A stretch of 64,000 nt of DNA from a plasmid. The DNA lies in the NCBI RefSeq assembly GCF_056712565.1, contig NZ_JBWXXM010000003.1. One strand, given 5' to 3'. The notes beneath the pieces are model-generated. The model searched no databases. It saw only the letters and a list, made by a program, of their open reading frames with translations, and was not told the DNA's origin. The translations under genes and the position numbers were made by a program. This document shows positions 6,077 to 54,360 of the stretch, piece by piece (the first letter of the stretch is position 1; each line of letters begins with the position of its first letter).

Positions 6077-6758
6077 AATATGTATAAAGGTAAGTAACTA
6101 TATAAGAGCGTCCAGTCTGCAAATACTCCTCTAAACATGGAGGAGTAGATTTATAATATCATAACATTTACTAAATCGTTTTACATTAATTTCAAATTTG
6201 AAATTAATGTATTTTGATAACTATATATTTTTGATTCCGAAAACAGACATTTCTTTCTTTGAGTCAGGGCTTACACTCAAAATATTAATATTGTTTGTGT
6301 GAAGACATATTATTCAATAACGATGGTGAGAAATATCTGTACTTTTTCGCATAATCTAACCATTTACTTAATTGTTCATTCTGTGAACAGAATCTGTTTG
6401 TTATGTATCAGGTTGATGATGTGATTAAGCAGTCTGAAACCAGAGGAATATGGAGTCAGAAATTTTCAGTTGTCTTTTAAGGGCGTCTGCAGGATTTTTT
6501 CTCCGTTTCTGCCTGTCCTGGCATTACCCCAATTCTCCCAAAAACAGTAAACCAGCCCTCAGCCCGCACCATGACTGGCTTAAGACGGGATCCCAGCGGC
6601 AAAATGCGCCTTTACGTATTTGGTTTTACCCGCAATAATGCGTGATAATCAAACAAAAGGATCCGCGCGCTGCGATTTATTGTCGTGGAAGGATCCGGGC
6701 GTTCAGGTCAGAATACCTGTATCCATAAACAGTGCGTGTGCTACGTGAAAAATAACTC

Positions 6759-29876: not shown

Positions 29877-30049
29877 TCTTCACGCCGATCAGATTACATA
29901 ATCCACGCGCCACCTGGACATTCAGGTAAAAAAGTCCAACTGGTGAGGTTGGGCTTTTTGGCTTTCCGGTTCTGTTGGTGGCTATGACCGGAGAAAATTG
30001 CTCTACACCTAACGCTTACATTTTATTTACAGCGTTTGATATCTTCCTC

Positions 30050-32004: not shown

Positions 32005-32789
32005 AAGAACAGCATTGGTATGACTCTGATGCTCCTTAAAATCCCACTTTTCAGAGTGGGATTTGTTTAATGCCCAGAACAGGGGGAATTTCCATTCATG
32101 CCCAAAAAATATTTTGATGTCCTCTCGCCAATTCTCGCGCTCAGTCCTTCCTGAAAAACCTCAGAATTCACGTAGCGCATCGCCGCTACTGCATCCATCA
32201 AAAAAAATGACAGCTTTTTTAATCATCTTGTGTTACTCAACTTACTGAAAAATGTGATTTATGAAAATGCCGCCGTCGGCATCAAGCAGTTGGCCAGCGC
32301 AACCGGCTGCATCGACCGCAACAAAAAAACTGAAAGAGAAAGCCCCTCAAATGAGGGAGAAAAAAAGGAAGTGCAGTCAACGAGAGGCGTAAAAAACCCG
32401 ACTGGTGAGGTCGGGTTTTAATACGGTTCCGGTTCTGAGTTGGTGGCTCTGACCGGAGGAAGTCACTCTACACCTAACGTTTACATTTTATGCACTCAGC
32501 CGCAGTATTGCAACTAACTGTGGTTAAGGCACCACATTTAGTTGTGTATCGTGGGTTTTATATACCTTATAATCATGAAGTTAGCCGTGTGGTGTGGCTT
32601 CTTCCTCTGCCCTTCCCGTTTATGCAGGTATGAACGATTTTAAAGTCCTGGCTGAACAAACAGGTGGTGCTGTGTTTAGTGCTCTGGCAGGAGGAAGTCA
32701 CTCTGCACCTAACAATGCGAGAGAACCGTTGTGACAGGCAGTGTAAGAGCAAGCAACGGTGATTTCCTCCAGTTTTACTGGAGAAACGG

Positions 32790-32885
32790 ATGATTAATCT
32801 GTTAATCATCGTTCTCAGGGCTGTGGTCGCCGTTGCAAACGCGCTGATTGCAATTCTGGAACTGATTCGCCAGTTCATCGACTGA
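32790..32885 (+). CDS. putative small hydrophobic toxin peptide (31 aa), DinQ/TisB-like, copy 1
   Basis: MINLLIIVLRAVVAVANALIAILELIRQFID; GGAG RBS; start codon inside perfect inverted repeat GATGATTAA-TCTG-TTAATCATC; coordinates approximate. Confidence 0.45.
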   Translation: MINLLIIVLRAVVAVANALIAILELIRQFID

Positions 32886-33707: not shown

Positions 33708-33803
33708 ATGATTAACCTGTTAATCATCATTCTCAGGGATGTGGTCGCCGTTGCAAACGCGCGGATTGCAGTTCTGGAACTGATTCGCCAGTTCATCGTT
33801 TGA
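33708..33803 (+). CDS. putative small hydrophobic toxin peptide (31 aa), DinQ/TisB-like, copy 2
   Basis: MINLLIIILRDVVAVANARIAVLELIRQFIV; same start-codon inverted repeat ATGATTAA-CCTG-TTAATCAT; coordinates approximate. Confidence 0.4.
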   Translation: MINLLIIILRDVVAVANARIAVLELIRQFIV

Positions 33804-41884: not shown

Positions 41885-42094
41885 AACAGGTGATACAGGG
41901 CAGGCGGTGGAGGCCGCCTGTCAGCCCGCGCGAACCCCCTGGCAGGCTGACGCCTGCCGGAAGGGAAGCGGGCCACGCTGACGCGTCGCCCGTTACCCTT
42001 CCCGTTAGTGATGTGTCCGGAATGTTTTTTCTGATGTTATTTTTCTGTGGTTACCGTGTTTGTTATTGTTCTTCTTCTTTTTCCTCTTCCTCTT

Positions 42095-42650
42095 CTTTCC
42101 GTTCCTCTCCTGTTTATGGCTTTTCCGGGCGTCCCCCTGGCGGGGCGGGCTGTCGTGAACGGAGCCAGCGGAGCTGTCTCCGCCCTGGCGGGCTTCCATC
42201 CCTGACGCGAAACCATGGCTTGCAGCGACCGTTCCGGTCGCGCCGCCTCTGTCGCGCCGTGGCCTGCGCTCCCGGCATCCCGGCAAAAGGCGCCGGAATG
42301 TAAGGAGCAACGCCGTTTCGCAAACCGCGCTTCACGTCGTTGCGGCGGGTCCCTGCTCATTGCCTGCCAAGTGCCACACACCCGTATGAGTCCCTGTCGC
42401 CGGGGGCTGAGACAGCCACAACCTGCCGCACTGACTGTCCAGGGTAAATGAACAGCCCACAAAATTTTTTACCCAGAACCCGGTAAAAAATTTTGCGTTC
42501 TGCCCAGGACAGGTGCGTCAGGCCGTGGCAGTGATGCCCCTTGCGGCGAAGGTTCTCAAACGGGTGAAGTTCATACCACAGGGAATACAGCAGCAGGTTC
42601 CCGCGAAACGTCAAAACCGCGGCTCCCGAAACTCAACGGGTGATGTTCTT
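42095..42650. repeat. Frpo-like leading-region repeat (single-strand promoter/ssi-like element), copy 1
   Basis: ~550-bp GC-rich block CCTTTTCCGGGCGTCCCCCTGGCGGGGCGGGCTGTCGTGAACGGAGCCAGCGGAGCTGTCTCCGCCCTGGCGGGCTTCC... ending ...CAAAACCGCGGCTCCCGAAACTCAA, recurring 3 times, each upstream of a leading-region gene and preceded by a polypyrimidine tract. Confidence 0.65.
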
Positions 42651-42876
42651 TAAAAATCAGGATTTATTTCAGGCTCCGGCAATACGCATTTATTTGTTCT
42701 GTCAGTCATCCGGCTGGCAGGTAATGAGAACGCAGGAACAGAAGGAGGAAAACACCGGAAAGCGTCAGATGCAGATATGAAAAAAGCAGGTCAGGGACCT
42801 GCTTAATCCACGCCGTAGAAATCGCCGCAATCGATTTTCACGGCTTCACTAACCTGTGTCATAAGGAGTTTCATTT

Positions 42877-43107
42877 ATGACAGTAAGTATTGTTTCACCT
42901 TCCGCAGCGGCTGTAAAGCCCCGCCGTCATCCCCGTTTCAGACGCGAAGACATCCCCGCGCCGGAAATTGACCCCGTGCTGAAAGCATTCGGGCGACACA
43001 TAGCCCGGAGTTTTCACCGGGGACGTGGTGTACACATCCCCGCCATGAAAAACACGGCTTTCGGGCAGGTGCTCCGCACACTTGAACTGAAACGCGCTTT
43101 TAACTGA
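42877..43107 (+). CDS. hypothetical leading-region protein (76 aa)
   Basis: ORF immediately downstream of Frpo-like repeat 1. Confidence 0.45.
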   Translation: MTVSIVSPSAAAVKPRRHPRFRREDIPAPEIDPVLKAFGRHIARSFHRGRGVHIPAMKNTAFGQVLRTLELKRAFN

Positions 43108-45131: not shown

Positions 45132-45354
45132 AGACTCCGGGCAGGCGGGAGGATAAATGCTCGTCTGCCCGCGCCGGGAAAAGACCGCGCGCCGGTGGCG
45201 CTGAAAGGGGCCGCGCTCACGCGCCGCCCCTTTCATTACGCGGAAATTCTGCTGTGGGCTTCTGTCTTTTCAGATCTGTCATTTGTCTGTTACTGATGAT
45301 GTTCCTGCTACTGCTACTGTTTTTCTTTTTTCTGCTGCTCTGATTACTGTCTGT

Positions 45355-45900
45355 CTTGTTCTTCTTCTGCCTGTGCCTTTTCCGGGCGTCCCCCTGGCGG
45401 GGCGGGCTGTCGTGAACGGAGCCAGCGGAGCTGTCTCCGCCCTGGCGGGCTTCCATCCCTGACGCAAAACCCCTGGCTTGCAGCGACTGTTCCGGTCGCG
45501 CGCCTCTGTCGCGCCGTGGCCTGCGCTCCTGGCATCCCGGCAAAAGGCCGCCGGGATGTAAGGCGCAACGCCGTTTCGCAAACCGCGCTTCACGTCGTTG
45601 CGGCGGGTCCCTGCCCGTTGTTATGTCCGGTGCCATTCACCTGTTTAAGCCCCTGTCGCCGGGGGCAAAGACAGCCACAACCGTCTCCGCCAGTCCAGGG
45701 GTGAAATGCACATCCCGCAAAACTTTTTGCCCAAAAGCAGGCAAAAACTTTTGCGGTCTGCCCCCGGACAGTCGTTTCCTGCCGTGGCAGTGATGCCCCT
45801 TGCGGCGAAGGTTTTCAAAAAGGTGATGGTGAATACCGGAGGGAACAAAAGGCAGGTCCCCGCAAAACGTCAAAACCGCGGCTCCCGAAACTCAAAAGAT
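45355..45900. repeat. Frpo-like leading-region repeat, copy 2
   Basis: Same repeat family as 42095-42650; immediately upstream of ssb. Confidence 0.65.
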
Positions 45901-45936
45901 GATGGGGCTGAAAACATCAACAGAAGGAGACACATC

Positions 45937-46765
<829 letters not shown>

Positions 46766-46828
46766 GAGAGGTGCCGGACGGGAATGCGTCCGGCAGACAT
46801 ACAACCATCCCGGTCAAAGGAGAAATAT

Positions 46829-48787
46829 ATGTCGGTTACAGAGTCTAAGACAAAAACGGAGCGTAAATCCAGCCGTAAACCGTCAAAAGAGCAGGAGACT
46901 GCCCTGTCTGCCCTGCTGGCGCAGACGGCGGAAGTGAGCGTGCCGCTGGCCTCACTGATTAAATCACCACTGAATGTGCGCACGGTGCCGTATTCTGCGG
47001 AGTCTGTCAGCGAACTGGCGGAGTCCATTAAGGGCGTTGGCCTGTTGCAGAATCTGGTCGTGCATACCCTGCCTGGTGACCGTTACGGTGTCGCCGCAGG
47101 TGGTCGCCGACTGGCTGCACTCAACATGCTGGCAGAGCGTGGCATCATTCCGGCTGACTGGCCTGTCCGTGTGAAGGTCATTCCGCAGGAGCTGGCGACG
47201 GCGGCATCAATGACTGAAAACGGTCATCGTCGGGATATGCACCCTGCTGAACAGATTGCCGGATTCCGCGCAATGGCGCAGGAAGGCAAAACACCTGCAC
47301 AAATCGGTGATTTGCTGGGCTATTCACCCCGCTATGTCCAGCGAATGCTGAAACTGGCTGACCTTGCGCCTGTCATCCTCGATGCGCTGGCAGAAGACCG
47401 CATCACTACCGAACACTGTCAGGCGCTGGCGCTGGAGAACGACACCGCGCGTCAGGTACAGGTGTTTGAAGCCGCCTGTCAGTCGGGATGGGGCGGAAAA
47501 CCGGATGTGCGGGTTATCCGCAATCTGATTACGGAAAGTGAAGTGGCGGTGGCGGGGAACAGTAAATTCCGCTTCGTGGGGGCTGATGCTTTCTCACCTG
47601 ACGAACTGCGTACTGATTTGTTCAGCGATGACGGGGACGGTTATGTCGACCGCGTGGCGCTCGATGCTGCCCTGCTGGAAAAACTCCAGGCTGTCGCTGA
47701 ACACCTTCGGGAAGCCGAAGGCTGGGAATGGTGCGCCGGACGCATGGAGCCTGTCGGTGAGTGCCGTGAGGATGCCGGAACATACCGCTGTCTGCCGGAG
47801 CCGGACGCGGTGCTGACGGAGGCGGAAGAAGAACGCCTGAACGAACTGATGACGCGTTACGACGCGCTGGAAAACCAGTGTGAGGAATCCGACCTGCTGG
47901 AAGCAGAAATGAAGCTGATGCGCTGCATGGCGAAGGTCAGAGCGTGGACGCCGGAGATGCGTACCGGAAGCGGTGTGGTGGTGTCCTGGCGTTACGGTAA
48001 TGTGTGTGTCCAGCGTGGTGTGCAGTTGCGCAGCGAGGATGACGCGGCTGACGACGCTGACCGCACGGAACAGGTGCAGGAGAAAGCATCAGTGGAGGAA
48101 ATCAGTCTGCCACTGCTGACGAAAATGTCTTCCGAACGCACGCTGGCAGTCCAGGCGGCACTCATGCAGCAACCGGACAAATCCCTGGCACTGCTGGCAT
48201 GGACGCTCTGCCTGAATGTGTTTGGCAGCGGAGCGTACAGTAAACCAGCACAAATCAGCCTGGAATGTAAACATTATTCGCTGACCAGCGATGCGCCGTC
48301 AGGGAAGGAAGGTGCCGCGTTCATGGCGATGATGGCAGAAAAAGCCCGTCTTGCGGCCCTGTTACCGGAGGGATGGTCACGGGACATGACGACGTTCCTG
48401 TCACTCAGTCAGGAGGTGCTGTTATCCCTGCTCAGTTTCTGCACCGCGTGCAGCATCCACGGCGTTCAGACCCGCGAGTGTGGTCACACGTCACGCAGCC
48501 CGCTGGACACGCTGGAGAGCGCCATCGGTTTTCACATGCGTGACTGGTGGCAGCCGACAAAAGCAAACTTCTTCGGACACCTGAAAAAGCCGCAGATTAT
48601 CGCAGCTCTGAATGATGCCGGACTGTCCGGTGCCGCACGGGATGCAGAGAAGATGAAGAAAGGTGATGCGGCTGAACATGCAGAGCACCATATGAAAGAC
48701 AACCGCTGGGTGCCTGGCTGGATGTGTGCACCACATCCACAGACGGATACCACTGAACGCACCGATAACCTGGCTGATGCCGCCTGA
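46829..48787 (+). CDS. ParB/Srx-like nuclease domain protein (leading region)
   Basis: N-terminal ParB-like region (…LLQNLVVHTLPGDRYGVAAGGRRLAAL…); start MSVTESK with AAGGAG RBS inside track ORF 46784-48787. Confidence 0.7.
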   Translation: MSVTESKTKTERKSSRKPSKEQETALSALLAQTAEVSVPLASLIKSPLNVRTVPYSAESVSELAESIKGVGLLQNLVVHTLPGDRYGVAAGGRRLAALNMLAERGIIPADWPVRVKVIPQELATAASMTENGHRRDMHPAEQIAGFRAMAQEGKTPAQIGDLLGYSPRYVQRMLKLADLAPVILDALAEDRITTEHCQALALENDTARQVQVFEAACQSGWGGKPDVRVIRNLITESEVAVAGNSKFRFVGADAFSPDELRTDLFSDDGDGYVDRVALDAALLEKLQAVAEHLREAEGWEWCAGRMEPVGECREDAGTYRCLPEPDAVLTEAEEERLNELMTRYDALENQCEESDLLEAEMKLMRCMAKVRAWTPEMRTGSGVVVSWRYGNVCVQRGVQLRSEDDAADDADRTEQVQEKASVEEISLPLLTKMSSERTLAVQAALMQQPDKSLALLAWTLCLNVFGSGAYSKPAQISLECKHYSLTSDAPSGKEGAAFMAMMAEKARLAALLPEGWSRDMTTFLSLSQEVLLSLLSFCTACSIHGVQTRECGHTSRSPLDTLESAIGFHMRDWWQPTKANFFGHLKKPQIIAALNDAGLSGAARDAEKMKKGDAAEHAEHHMKDNRWVPGWMCAPHPQTDTTERTDNLADAA

Positions 48788-48838: not shown

Positions 48839-49276
48839 GTGATGAAAACTGAACTGACCCTGAATGTATTACAGACCATGAACGCACAGGAATATGAAGA
48901 TATCAGGGCTGCCGGAAGTGATGAACGCCGTGAGCTGACACACGCCGTGATGCGGGAACTGGATGCGCCGGACAACTGGACGATGAATGGCGAGTACGGC
49001 AGCGAGTTCGGCGGCTTTTTCCCCGTCCAGGTCCGTTTCACGCCTGCCCACGAACGTTTTCACCTGGCGTTATGTTCACCGGGTGATGTCTCCCAGGTCT
49101 GGGTGCTGGTTCTGGTGAATGCCGGTGGTGAGCCGTTTGCGGTGGTTCAGGTACAGCGGCGGTTTGCACCGGAAGCAGTCAGCCATTCACTGGCACTGGC
49201 GGCGTCACTGGATGCGCAGGGGTACAGCGTTAACGACATCATCCATATCCTGATGGCGGAAGGAGGTCAGGTATGA
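48839..49276 (+). CDS. psiB: PsiB, plasmid SOS inhibition protein B
   Basis: [53 protein letters not shown]... recognised as PsiB. Confidence 0.9.
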
Positions 49277-49992
49277 ACGCACGTTCACGGGCACTGGTTC
49301 CCCTCAGCACAGAGCAACAGGCCGCATGGCGGGCGGTGGCGGAGACGGAAAAACGCCGCCATCAGGGAAACACGCTGGCGGAATATCCGTATGCGGGAGC
49401 ATTTTTCCGCTGTCTGAACGGAAGCCGCCGGATTTCGCTGTCTGACCTGCGATTTTTCATGCCGTCCCTGACCGCAGAAGAACTGCACGGCAACCGTCTT
49501 CAGTGGCTGTGTGCCATCGATGTGCTGATTGAAACACAGGGCGAGGTCTGCCTCCTTCCCCTTCCCGGCGATGCAGCAGAACGCTTGTTCCCGTCGGTGC
49601 GGTTTCGTGTCAGGGAACGCAGTCGCCATAAATCCGCGCTGGTCATGCAGAAGTACAGCCGCCAGCAAGCGAGGGAGGCAGAGCAGAAAGCCCGTGCGTA
49701 CCAGGTGCTGGTTGCTCAGGCTGAAATCGAACTGGCATTTCATTCACCGGAAACAGTCGGAAGCTGGCATGCACGCTGGAGTGACCGGGTGGCAGAGCAT
49801 GACCTGGAACCCCTGTTCTGGCAGTGGGGCGAGCGTTTTCCGTCACTGGCCGGAATGGAACGCTGGCAGTGGCAGGATATGCCATTCTGGCAGGTTATCG
49901 CGGAAGCCAGTCTGGCAGCCAGAGAGGCCGGTCATGCTGTCCGTGAGATGGAGCGGTGGATGGTGCCGAACAAACTCCGGGAGGCAGCGTGA
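49273..49992 (+). CDS. psiA: PsiA, plasmid SOS inhibition protein A
   Basis: 239 aa translationally coupled to psiB, F-like order psiB-psiA. Confidence 0.85.
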
Positions 49993-50267
49993 TGCGGCAA
50001 TAATCACACGGATTACCCGTGAACTGGTTGAACGACCAGATTATTTTCAGGGAAAGTGAGTGTGGTCAGCGTGCAGGGATATGAGCTATGATGTGCCCGG
50101 CGCTTGAGGCTTTCTGCCTCATGACGTGAAGGTGGTTTGTTACCGTGTTGTGTGGCAGAAGGCAGAAAGCCCCGTAGTTAATTTTTCATTAACCCACGAG
50201 GCCCCCTGTATGTCTGATCAACAACAGTATGGCCTCTTACCGTGCTTAATGCAAGGAGGAGTAAACC

Positions 50268-50429
50268 ATGAAACTACCGGGAAACGCCCTTATCTGGTGC
50301 GTATTAATCGTGTGCTGCACGTTGTTAATATTCACACTCCTGACCCGGAATCGTCTGTGCGAAGTCCGGCTGAAGGACGGATACAGGGAGGTTACGGCAA
50401 GTTTGGCTTACGAATCCAGCGGTAAGTAG
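50268..50429 (+). CDS. hok: Hok/Gef-family type I toxin (flmA/hok-like)
   Basis: [53 protein letters not shown]; overlapping upstream ORF in another frame (50126-50425) consistent with mok. Confidence 0.8.
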
Positions 50430-50744
50430 CAACCTGGAGGCGGGCGCAGGCCCGCCTTTTCAGGGCTGATGCTGGTCTGACTGCACTGAAGCGCCTTTAT
50501 AAAGGGGCTGCTGGTTCGCCGGTGGCCCCTTTCTCCTTGCTGGCATTGTGCGGGCATGAACAACCAGACTGCCAGGAAGGCCGTTTCCCTCCGGGAACGG
50601 GGATGAACGTGCGCCTGCGGCGCCCGTTCTTTTCCCCCGCCTTCTCTGTTTATGACCTGTCAGAAATCACATCACCTTCCCTTTGATTATTCTCTTTTTC
50701 CTCCTGTTCTGACTCTGATTACTGCTGCCCTGATTATTGTCTGT

Positions 50745-51300
50745 TTTGTTGTTCTCCTGCTTATGCCTTTTCCGGGCGTCCCCCTGGCGGGGCGGGCTGT
50801 CGTGAACGGAGCCAGCGGAGCTGTCTCCGCCCTGGCGGGCTTCCATCCCTGACGCGAAACCCCGGGCTTGCAGCGACCGTTCCGGTCGCGCCGCCTCTGT
50901 CGCGCCGTGGCCTGCGCTCCCGGCATCCCGGCAAAAGGCCGCCGGGATGTAAGGGGCAACGCCGTTTCGCAAACCGCGCTTCACGTCGTTGCGGCGGGTT
51001 CCTGCCCGTTGTTGTGTCCGGTGCCATTCACCTGTTTAAGCCCCTGTCGCCGGGAGCTGATACAGCCACAACCTGCCGCACTGACTGTCCAGGGTAAATG
51101 AACAGCCCACAAAATTTTTTACCCAAAACCCGGTAAAAAATTTTGCGTTCTGCCCAGGACAGGTGCGTCAGGCCGTGGCAGTGATGCCCCTTGCGGCGAA
51201 GGTTCTCAAACAGGTGATGGTGAATACCGGAGGGAACAAACGGCAGGTCCCCGCAAAACGTCAAAACCGCGGCTCCCGAAACTCAACAGATGATGGGGGC
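50745..51300. repeat. Frpo-like leading-region repeat, copy 3
   Basis: Third copy of the repeat seen at 42095 and 45355. Confidence 0.65.
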
Positions 51301-51327
51301 TGAAAACCAGAGAGAGGAGAAAGCAGG

Positions 51328-51615: not shown

Positions 51616-51733
51616 CCGGATGTGATGAATATCCCTCCTGATTGTTGCAATCTTGTTAATGGAGATCGGGAGGGATGATATTAAGCGGAAAAATTTTTTA
51701 TTAAATTTATTCTTTCATAAAGGAGTAGCTGTT

Positions 51734-52555
51734 ATGCGATTAGCTTCCCGTTTTGGTCGGTATAATTCCATCCGCCGTGAACGTCCTTTAACGGATGATG
51801 AATTAATGCAGTTTGTGCCTTCGGTGTTTTCCGGTGATAAACATGAGTCCCGGAGTGAACGTTATACGTATATTTCAACAATCAATATCATCAATAAGTT
51901 ACGTGATGAAGGTTTCCAGCCATTCTTTGCCTGTCAGAGTCGGGTTCGTGATTTGGGACGTCGCGAATACAGTAAACATATGTTACGTCTTCGCAGGGAA
52001 GGGCATATTAACGGGCAGGAAGTTCCTGAAATTATCCTGCTTAATTCACATGATGGTTCATCCAGTTATCAGATGATCCCCGGAATTTTTCGTTTTGTCT
52101 GCACAAATGGCCTGGTGTGCGGAAATAATTTTGGCGAAATCCGCGTTCCACATAAAGGTGATATTGTCGGGCAGGTTATCGAGGGAGCGTATGAAGTGCT
52201 CGGTGTCTTTGATAAGGTCACTGATAATATGGAGGCGATGAAAGAAATTCATCTTAACAGTGACGAGCAACATTTATTTGGCAGAGCTGCACTGATGGTC
52301 AGGTATGAAGATGAAAATAAAACGCCGGTGACGCCTGAACAGATAATTACTCCCCGTCGTCGGGAGGATAAACAGAACGATCTCTGGACAACCTGGCAGC
52401 GGGTTCAGGAGAATATGATAAAAGGTGGATTATCGGGGCGAAGTGCCTCCGGGAAAAATACCAGGACAAGAGCCATTACAGGTATTGATGGTGATATAAG
52501 AATCAACAAAGCATTATGGATGATTGCCGAACAGTTCAGGGAGTGGAAGTCGTGA
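51734..52555 (+). CDS. conserved leading-region protein of unknown function (~273 aa; possibly DUF932-like)
   Basis: MRLASRFGRYNSIRRERPLTDDELMQFVPSVF...LLNSHDGSSSYQMIPGIFRFVCTNGLVCG...; family assignment from memory only. Confidence 0.5.
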   Translation: MRLASRFGRYNSIRRERPLTDDELMQFVPSVFSGDKHESRSERYTYISTINIINKLRDEGFQPFFACQSRVRDLGRREYSKHMLRLRREGHINGQEVPEIILLNSHDGSSSYQMIPGIFRFVCTNGLVCGNNFGEIRVPHKGDIVGQVIEGAYEVLGVFDKVTDNMEAMKEIHLNSDEQHLFGRAALMVRYEDENKTPVTPEQIITPRRREDKQNDLWTTWQRVQENMIKGGLSGRSASGKNTRTRAITGIDGDIRINKALWMIAEQFREWKS

Positions 52556-54158: not shown

Positions 54159-54279
54159 AAGAAATTTGACTTCGTTCAAATATCAGAGTTTTTATGATTT
54201 AAAAAGGTGACAGTACGAAAGATAATTAGTATATTAATTACGTGGTTAATGCCACGTTAAAATTTGAAATTAAAAATCG

Positions 54280-54360
54280 CCGATGCAGGGAGACGTGAAC
54301 TCCCTGCATCGACTGTCCATAGAATCCTTTGTGAGGAGGTTCCTATGTATCCGATGGATC
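54280..54360 (-). ncRNA. finP: FinP antisense RNA (approximate position, antisense to traJ leader/start)
   Basis: By F-like organisation FinP is antisense to traJ 5' UTR and start codon (traJ ATG ~54345); not verified by structure. Confidence 0.35.

Follow-up and report, generated by a model that had tools for sequence, protein, structure and literature searches.

Does the region between psiA and the third Frpo-like repeat of this IncF plasmid hold a complete hok/mok/sok module, and if so, where does the antisense RNA of that module lie? A preliminary description of the 64,000-nt stretch of plasmid DNA analyzed here, which we call the window, had proposed a type I toxin locus of this kind in this place, and protein family models, Rfam, alignment with F flm and R1-type alleles, and RNA folds all bore it out. 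We put the probability at about 95% that window positions 50063-50540 carry an intact hok/mok/sok post-segregational killing module, which would act by the mechanism of its R1 homologue. What our analysis demonstrates for this locus is its genes and sequence elements, how far these are conserved, and the alternative folds predicted for its mRNA. It is an already known system of the textbook type and an ordinary one, and its allele is one carried by many IncFIB/FIC plasmids of E. coli. Its importance beyond correct annotation is little; the true coordinates of mok and Sok depart from a naive ORF reading, and RefSeq under-annotates the allele.

Genomic context and distribution of the locus

The locus is preceded by an intact 667-aa ORF for a ParB-like protein (46784-48787), psiB (48839-49276), and psiA (49273-49992, 239 aa), and followed by the third Frpo-like repeat (50684-51310, approximately 625 bp), a 95-aa ORF, a DUF932 gene (51653-52555), an SLT gene, and traM/traJ with FinP. 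The order psiB-psiA-hok-Frpo repeat-95-aa ORF-DUF932-SLT-traM is the same as in plasmid F, for which the arrangement of the leading region around flm and the ygeA/ygeB-like genes has been published (PMC9849209).

A 521-bp segment containing the locus was 100% identical in all the best matches listed, including pECOS88, and more than 300 records matched it at an identity of at least 99%; these records label the gene as a member of the Hok/Gef family. Relatives of the locus were found in more than 5000 plasmid records and in 3231 of 5426 complete E. coli genomes. Numerous IncFIB/FIC plasmids also match the surrounding 9.5 kb at 100% identity. Despite its identical hok locus, pECOS88 has a ParB-like gene cut short by ISEc12 and a psiA that carries a frameshift annotation.

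Three Frpo-like direct repeats of approximately 625 bp, piecewise 68-96% identical, are present in the window, the first two at 42037-42660 and 45294-45919. A small hydrophobic ORF (…LIIVCFVVLLLMPFPGVPLAGRAVVNGASGAVSALA…) is found where the second repeat starts and again where the third starts (45328-45447 and 50652-50852, both on the plus strand) and may simply mirror the DNA repeat. Just 3′ of the first repeat, at 42781-42882 on the minus strand, Rfam reported AS-pc01 ("Antisense to pHK01_035") with 105 bits.

The position of hok/sok between repeats 2 and 3, which lie 5.39 kb apart, parallels that of flm in F, flanked by Frpo2 and Frpo1. This layout brings up a reading that keeps the same mechanism and assigns it another selected role, namely the policing of Frpo-Frpo deletions that would remove psiB-psiA, and perhaps also phage exclusion. 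Such a deletion would act exactly like plasmid loss, because hok and sok would both be removed with it. For the same layout in F, Couturier et al. proposed that flmAB safeguards the leading region, i.e., the Frpo2-Frpo1 segment (PMC9849209), and hok/sok on a high-copy plasmid was reported to be protective against T4 (review PMC4147584). As proposed for F, the hok/sok of the window may guard the leading region between the Frpo repeats against deletion. However, this role is compatible with post-segregational killing of plasmid-free cells, and we consider it rather unlikely that it is the one for which the locus was selected. As a post-segregational killing module, the locus would contribute to the stability with which this IncF plasmid is inherited.

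No second Hok-family gene was found in the window, and the Rfam family RF01794 matched the window once only. The preliminary description had set the locus apart from a DinQ-like type I system elsewhere in the window, and Hok indeed proved to have no relationship to the DinQ/AgrB-like loci found at about 29.9-33.8 kb. The latter comprise sites at 29926-30012 and 32389-32477 on the minus strand and at 32790-32885 and about 33708-33788 on the plus strand, where the Rfam AgrB family (dinQ antisense) gave two matches of 46 and 64 bits near DinQ-like small hydrophobic ORFs, e.g., MINLLIIVLRAVVAVANALIAILELIRQFID. Other structured RNAs in the window were the pair of the traJ 5′ UTR and the FinP antisense RNA at 54240-54351 (124.7 and 97.3 bits) and an ALIL pseudoknot, the frameshift signal of the IS3 family, at 598-714 (120 bits), both of which are standard for an IncF plasmid with IS elements.

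The hok toxin gene and its annotation

The 53-aa Hok-like ORF noticed earlier is present at 50268-50429 on the plus strand, begins with ATG, and passes both family models applied to it. It matched Pfam HOK_GEF (PF01848) with an E value of 1.1e-15 and 57.4 bits (cutoff, 22) and the NCBIfam model NF007279, "Hok family toxin," with 98 bits (cutoff, 73). The protein shares 70% identity with the R1-type Hok. A Shine-Dalgarno sequence, AAGGAGG, can be read directly at 50253-50259 on the plus strand, and GCAAGGAG was unchanged across the 11 aligned alleles.

The public annotation of this DNA differs. On 100% identical DNA, RefSeq/PGAP gives a Hok of 40 aa (WP_223195199.1) that starts at an internal ATC and corresponds to window positions 50307-50429 and, in L013, to 6308-6430. 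The RefSeq record of pECOS88 (L001, 4210-4390) treats mok as a partial pseudogene, and the RefSeq records of identical DNA lack a Sok annotation. The Hok of F is likewise annotated as 41 aa.

A locus with a partial mok pseudogene and a Hok of only 40 aa, as RefSeq has it on identical DNA, could be a decayed and non-functional remnant like many chromosomal hok loci, kept by its linkage to the conserved leading region, and lesions do occur in related alleles, two of which have a Mok of 50 aa while a frame change in p62 (E. coli 746) fuses the mok start to hok. However, the RefSeq calls are start-site and pseudogene artefacts, the full-length ORFs fit the family models over their entire length, and the elements of the window locus are all intact, namely both promoters, tac, ucb, the Shine-Dalgarno sequence, the 71-aa mok, the 53-aa hok, dcb, the 3′ hairpin, and fbi. 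Decay is therefore very improbable, and we treat the locus below as an intact module.

The mok reading frame

In the preliminary description, an ORF at 50126-50425 in another frame was taken for mok. The overlapping ORF in the +1 frame exists, but mok starts within it at the ATG at 50210, not at the GTG at 50126. So defined, mok occupies 50210-50425 on the plus strand, encodes 71 aa, and overlaps hok, to whose translation its own is coupled. Its product matched Pfam DUF5431 over positions 1-70 of 70 (E = 4e-41) and the NCBIfam equivalog NF010277, "modulator of post-segregation killing protein," over positions 1-71 of 71 (153.5 bits; cutoff, 110). The mok Shine-Dalgarno sequence, GAGG, lies at 50198-50201 on the plus strand, 8 nt 5′ of the ATG; it was invariant in the allele alignment and is sequestered in the predicted full-length fold.

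The 99-aa ORF that starts at the GTG was rejected as Mok, given that the family models match only the 71 aa from the ATG at 50210. We regard it as a mechanical extension, because 8 of 10 related alleles have in-frame stops between 50126 and 50210, a stretch that is open only in the window allele and one other, and because this stretch sits in a conserved helix. That the GTG nevertheless opens the true upstream frame, with an antisense RNA at 50100-50180 opposite its start, is scarcely credible: the frame is open from 50126 in the window allele and the Rfam "sok" match begins at 50098, but the Pfam and NCBIfam models cover exactly the 71 aa, the upstream stretch has those stop codons, the GTG lacks a Shine-Dalgarno sequence and falls within a 16-bp helix that is conserved in the mRNA leader, the Rfam match runs along the sense strand up to the hok AUG, and the conserved antisense promoter sits at 50226-50254.

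Related alleles vary in this gene. In p62 of E. coli 746 (L007), the ATG that follows the mok Shine-Dalgarno sequence reads in frame with hok, which would yield an N-terminally extended Hok and not Mok. The 50-aa Mok is found in M19 plasmid A (L005) and in Klebsiella quasivariicola pKPN1705-2 (L011), and still overlaps the hok start in both.

The predicted Sok antisense RNA and its promoter

An Rfam search for Sok, which had been suggested as a check, did match the locus, but on the plus strand. The RF01794 ("sok") match covered 50098-50270 with 92.7 bits (gathering threshold, 59; E value, about 1e-19 to 1e-21), which is far beyond chance, and spanned model positions 1-157 of 157, with the last positions aligned to the hok Shine-Dalgarno sequence and AUG. 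Given its plus-strand orientation and its end at these hok signals, the match shows that RF01794 models the hok mRNA leader, with the Sok target within it, and not the antisense RNA; the strand label of this family can mislead annotation.

The Sok promoter is inside mok on the minus strand, at 50226-50254, with the −35 box TTGCAT at 50254-50249, a 17-nt spacer, and the −10 box CATACT at 50231-50226. A generic sigma-70 scan, which did find the hok promoter, failed to report it because it has only 7 of 12 matches to the consensus, and so it was placed via alignment to R1- and F-type alleles. When the antisense strands of 11 alleles, F flm and R1-type ones among them, were aligned, the TTGC of the −35 box, the spacing, and xATxCT of the −10 box were conserved. 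The corresponding columns read TTGCGC and TATCCT in R1 and F, which score the same as the window against the consensus, and the R1 Sok promoter has been described as strong (PMC1635323).

From this promoter, a Sok RNA of approximately 64 nt is predicted on the minus strand, from about 50219 to 50156. Its 5′ end would be the G at 50219, the seventh base past the −10 box, as judged from promoter spacing. The 3′ end is presumably near 50156, a position that we set from the 64-nt length of R1 Sok. The predicted fold (−28.5 kcal/mol; z = −6.2) has an 11-nt single-stranded 5′ tail over the mok AUG, then a long hairpin, and at the 3′ end a U-rich tail, and the R1-type Sok and F FlmB RNAs are predicted to have the same architecture. 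At the level of sequence and predicted structure, the RNA thus has its own promoter, complementarity to the mok start, and a tail followed by a hairpin, as a Sok should, and it is homologous in position to R1 Sok.

The preliminary description had named the lack of an antisense promoter or a Sok-like structure as the outcome that would speak against it; we found hexamers in the same positions and with the same 17-nt spacing as in R1-type alleles, together with a 64-nt hairpin RNA. It had also placed Sok on the opposite strand near the mok start. However, its range of 50100-50180 overlaps only the 3′ third of the predicted RNA and was misplaced through its reliance on the wrong mok start; the range of about 50156-50219 given by the aligned antisense promoter and the fold displaces it.

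Predicted alternative folds of the hok mRNA

The hok mRNA promoter lies at 50063-50092 on the plus strand, with the −35 box TGGTCA (50063-50068), an 18-nt spacer, and the −10 box TATGAT (50087-50092). It scored 9 of 12 to the consensus in the promoter scan, is nearly identical in F flm, and is 7 nt 5′ of the putative +1. By homology, +1 would be the G at 50099, and the full-length mRNA would run over 50099-50497 on the plus strand, approximately 399 nt, equivalent to the 398-nt species of R1. This +1 was checked by taking GGCGCU as +1 to +6, the window leader starting with GGCGCUU. The R1 residue numbering, which comes from PMC9841398, was checked on the R1-type allele EC-TO143, where this +1 yields the published G4/C5/T6 in tac, A70/G71/C72 in the anti-Shine-Dalgarno box, and G105/A106 in GAGG.

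Downstream of hok, a probable intrinsic terminator of the primary transcript is suggested by a 14-bp hairpin at 50501-50532 on the plus strand (−24 kcal/mol), which is followed by UCUCCUU and identical in F. Two full-length isoforms have been reported for R1 (PMC9841398). Directly past the psiA stop, at 50007-50039 on the plus strand, there are two adjacent small hairpins (z = −3.5 for the pair), the second of which is followed by AUUAUUUUCA and is terminator-like; they might insulate hok from read-through out of psiB-psiA or out of a transcript driven by Frpo.

The fold-back inhibition elements that the preliminary description had pointed to are present in the mRNA and paired in the minimum free energy (MFE) structure of the full-length form. 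All of the following elements are on the plus strand. The tac element (50099-50108, GGCGCUUGAG) can pair with fbi (50486-50495, CUGAAGCGCC) through 9 pairs in the full-length mRNA or with ucb in the truncated one. The ucb, or anti-Shine-Dalgarno box (50167-50175, AAAGCCCCG), in which A70/G71/C72 correspond to 50168-50170, can pair with the mok Shine-Dalgarno sequence or with tac. The dcb element (GGCCUC, 50231-50236) pairs with the mok Shine-Dalgarno region in the centroid of the truncated mRNA. A Sok promoter mutation in R1 falls in dcb (PMC9841398), consistent with the Sok −10 box abutting dcb in the window.

The full-length form, 50099-50497, had a predicted MFE of −163 kcal/mol (z = −4.7), in which +1-10 paired with +388-397, i.e., tac with fbi, and GAGG was buried in a hairpin with ucb nucleotides 50169-50175. 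The centroid of the truncated form, 50099-50461, showed tac with ucb, the Shine-Dalgarno region with dcb, and a predicted Sok-target hairpin at 50206-50227. The loop of this hairpin, CUGAUCA (50214-50220), is complementary to nt 1-6 at the 5′ end of Sok. Its start, CUGA, reads as a YUNR motif of the kind reportedly described by Franch et al. 1999. For the truncated RNA, the MFE structure is not the same as the centroid and shows a metastable 5′ hairpin at 50100-50127, formed by tac and the sequence just downstream, a concept taken from PMC9841398; in this family, such a hairpin prevents co-transcriptional translation. This hairpin also forms alone, since the fold of +1 to +37 gave −13.7 kcal/mol with an ensemble frequency of 0.81. 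A closed-to-open switch with tac/ucb and Shine-Dalgarno/dcb pairings has been published for R1 (PMC9841398), and our predicted folds reproduce it, for the truncated form in the centroid and not in the MFE structure. A further hairpin at 50437-50458 (−19.5 kcal/mol) would cap the 3′ end of the truncated, translatable mRNA; in R1, the truncated mRNA depends for its stability on the equivalent stem (G345, C358) (PMC9841398).

Helix conservation was scored on 11 alleles with an average column identity of 88%; the structures counted on this alignment came from the window sequence itself, which biases the figures in their favor. The tac/fbi helix (9 pairs, invariant in the 11 alleles) and the ucb/Shine-Dalgarno helix (6 pairs) had 100% of cells paired, the tac/ucb helix (6 pairs) 95.5%, and the Shine-Dalgarno/dcb helix 91.7%. 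The tac element was invariant throughout. Because tac, fbi, ucb, and the Shine-Dalgarno sequence are essentially invariant, the switch helices give no covariation evidence. The 3′ hairpin was 97% paired, with compensatory changes at 4 pairs.

Proposed mechanism

Killing by this mechanism is established for R1 and related systems (PMC9841398, PMC1635323, PMC4147584), and from these we infer the transcript ends, processing, RNase III cleavage, and killing at the window locus. A weak promoter would produce a stable hok mRNA of approximately 400 nt, in which tac pairs with fbi and ucb buries the mok ribosome-binding site; closed in this way, the full-length mRNA would be bound by neither Sok nor ribosomes. 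Slow trimming from the 3′ end to the hairpin at 50437-50458 would strip fbi, upon which tac would pair with ucb and the mok start region would refold with dcb, exposing the target hairpin.

In a plasmid-bearing cell, the abundant but short-lived Sok would bind the target via its 5′ tail and block mok translation, and with it the coupled translation of hok, while RNase III would cut the duplex. In a plasmid-free cell, Sok would decay first, mok and hok would be translated, and the 53-aa membrane toxin would kill the cell. The hok gene is oriented like psiB and psiA, for which the transferred strand serves as template, while Sok needs the complementary strand. As a matter of speculation, the built-in delay before hok becomes active would also bridge the brief phase in which the incoming DNA is single-stranded after conjugation.

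Comparison with F flm, R1, and other hok loci

The positional orthologue of the window hok locus in plasmid F is flmA/B/C, which lies in the same place, between psiB-psiA on one side and the Frpo1-type repeat with the ygeA/ygeB-like genes on the other, and has the same organization. Comparison of window positions 50099-50500 with the F locus (L002, 4809-5206) showed an uneven identity: 94.6% in the leader, 70.7% from the mok start to the hok start, 72.2% in the hok coding sequence, and 100% in the 3′ UTR. The hok promoter of F flm is identical to that of the window but for single base changes. On the other hand, Hok has 53 aa in the window and 52 aa in F, the Sok −10 box is CATACT in the window and TATCCT in F, and 6 of the 11 nt of the Sok 5′ tail differ from F FlmB, and 2 of 11 differ from R1 Sok. 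Between pE2855-3 and the window, the hok coding sequence is 99.4% identical and the Sok-target segment 86%. This mosaic identity suggests that modules have been exchanged by recombination within the locus. Whether the window allele, as an F-type scaffold with a replaced module of toxin-coding sequence, Sok tail, and target loop, forms a separate class of Sok specificity that arose by such intra-locus recombination is a tentative idea that we find possible but doubtful. If it were true, the Sok/FlmB RNAs of competing F-like plasmids would not neutralize killing by the window allele.

Beyond F flm, the same Hok/Gef family and regulatory logic are shared by srnB/srnC of F, pndA/pndB of R483, and the chromosomal hokA-E/gef loci (review PMC4147584). 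However, srnB, pndA, and the chromosomal hok genes are much more distant, occupy other genomic positions, and have no nucleotide-level similarity to the window locus. The window Hok is 36-53% identical to SrnB, PndA, and HokB. Membership of the locus in the hok/flm branch, and not in the srnB, pndA, or chromosomal hok branches, is clear. With the hok/sok (parB) system of R1, the window locus shares tac, fbi, ucb, dcb, the mok Shine-Dalgarno sequence GAGG, the 3′ hairpin, the Sok architecture, and the numbering of key residues, although in R1-type alleles the Sok hairpin region is 5 nt longer and the leader is 86-87% identical to that of the window. The R1 system has been characterized experimentally.
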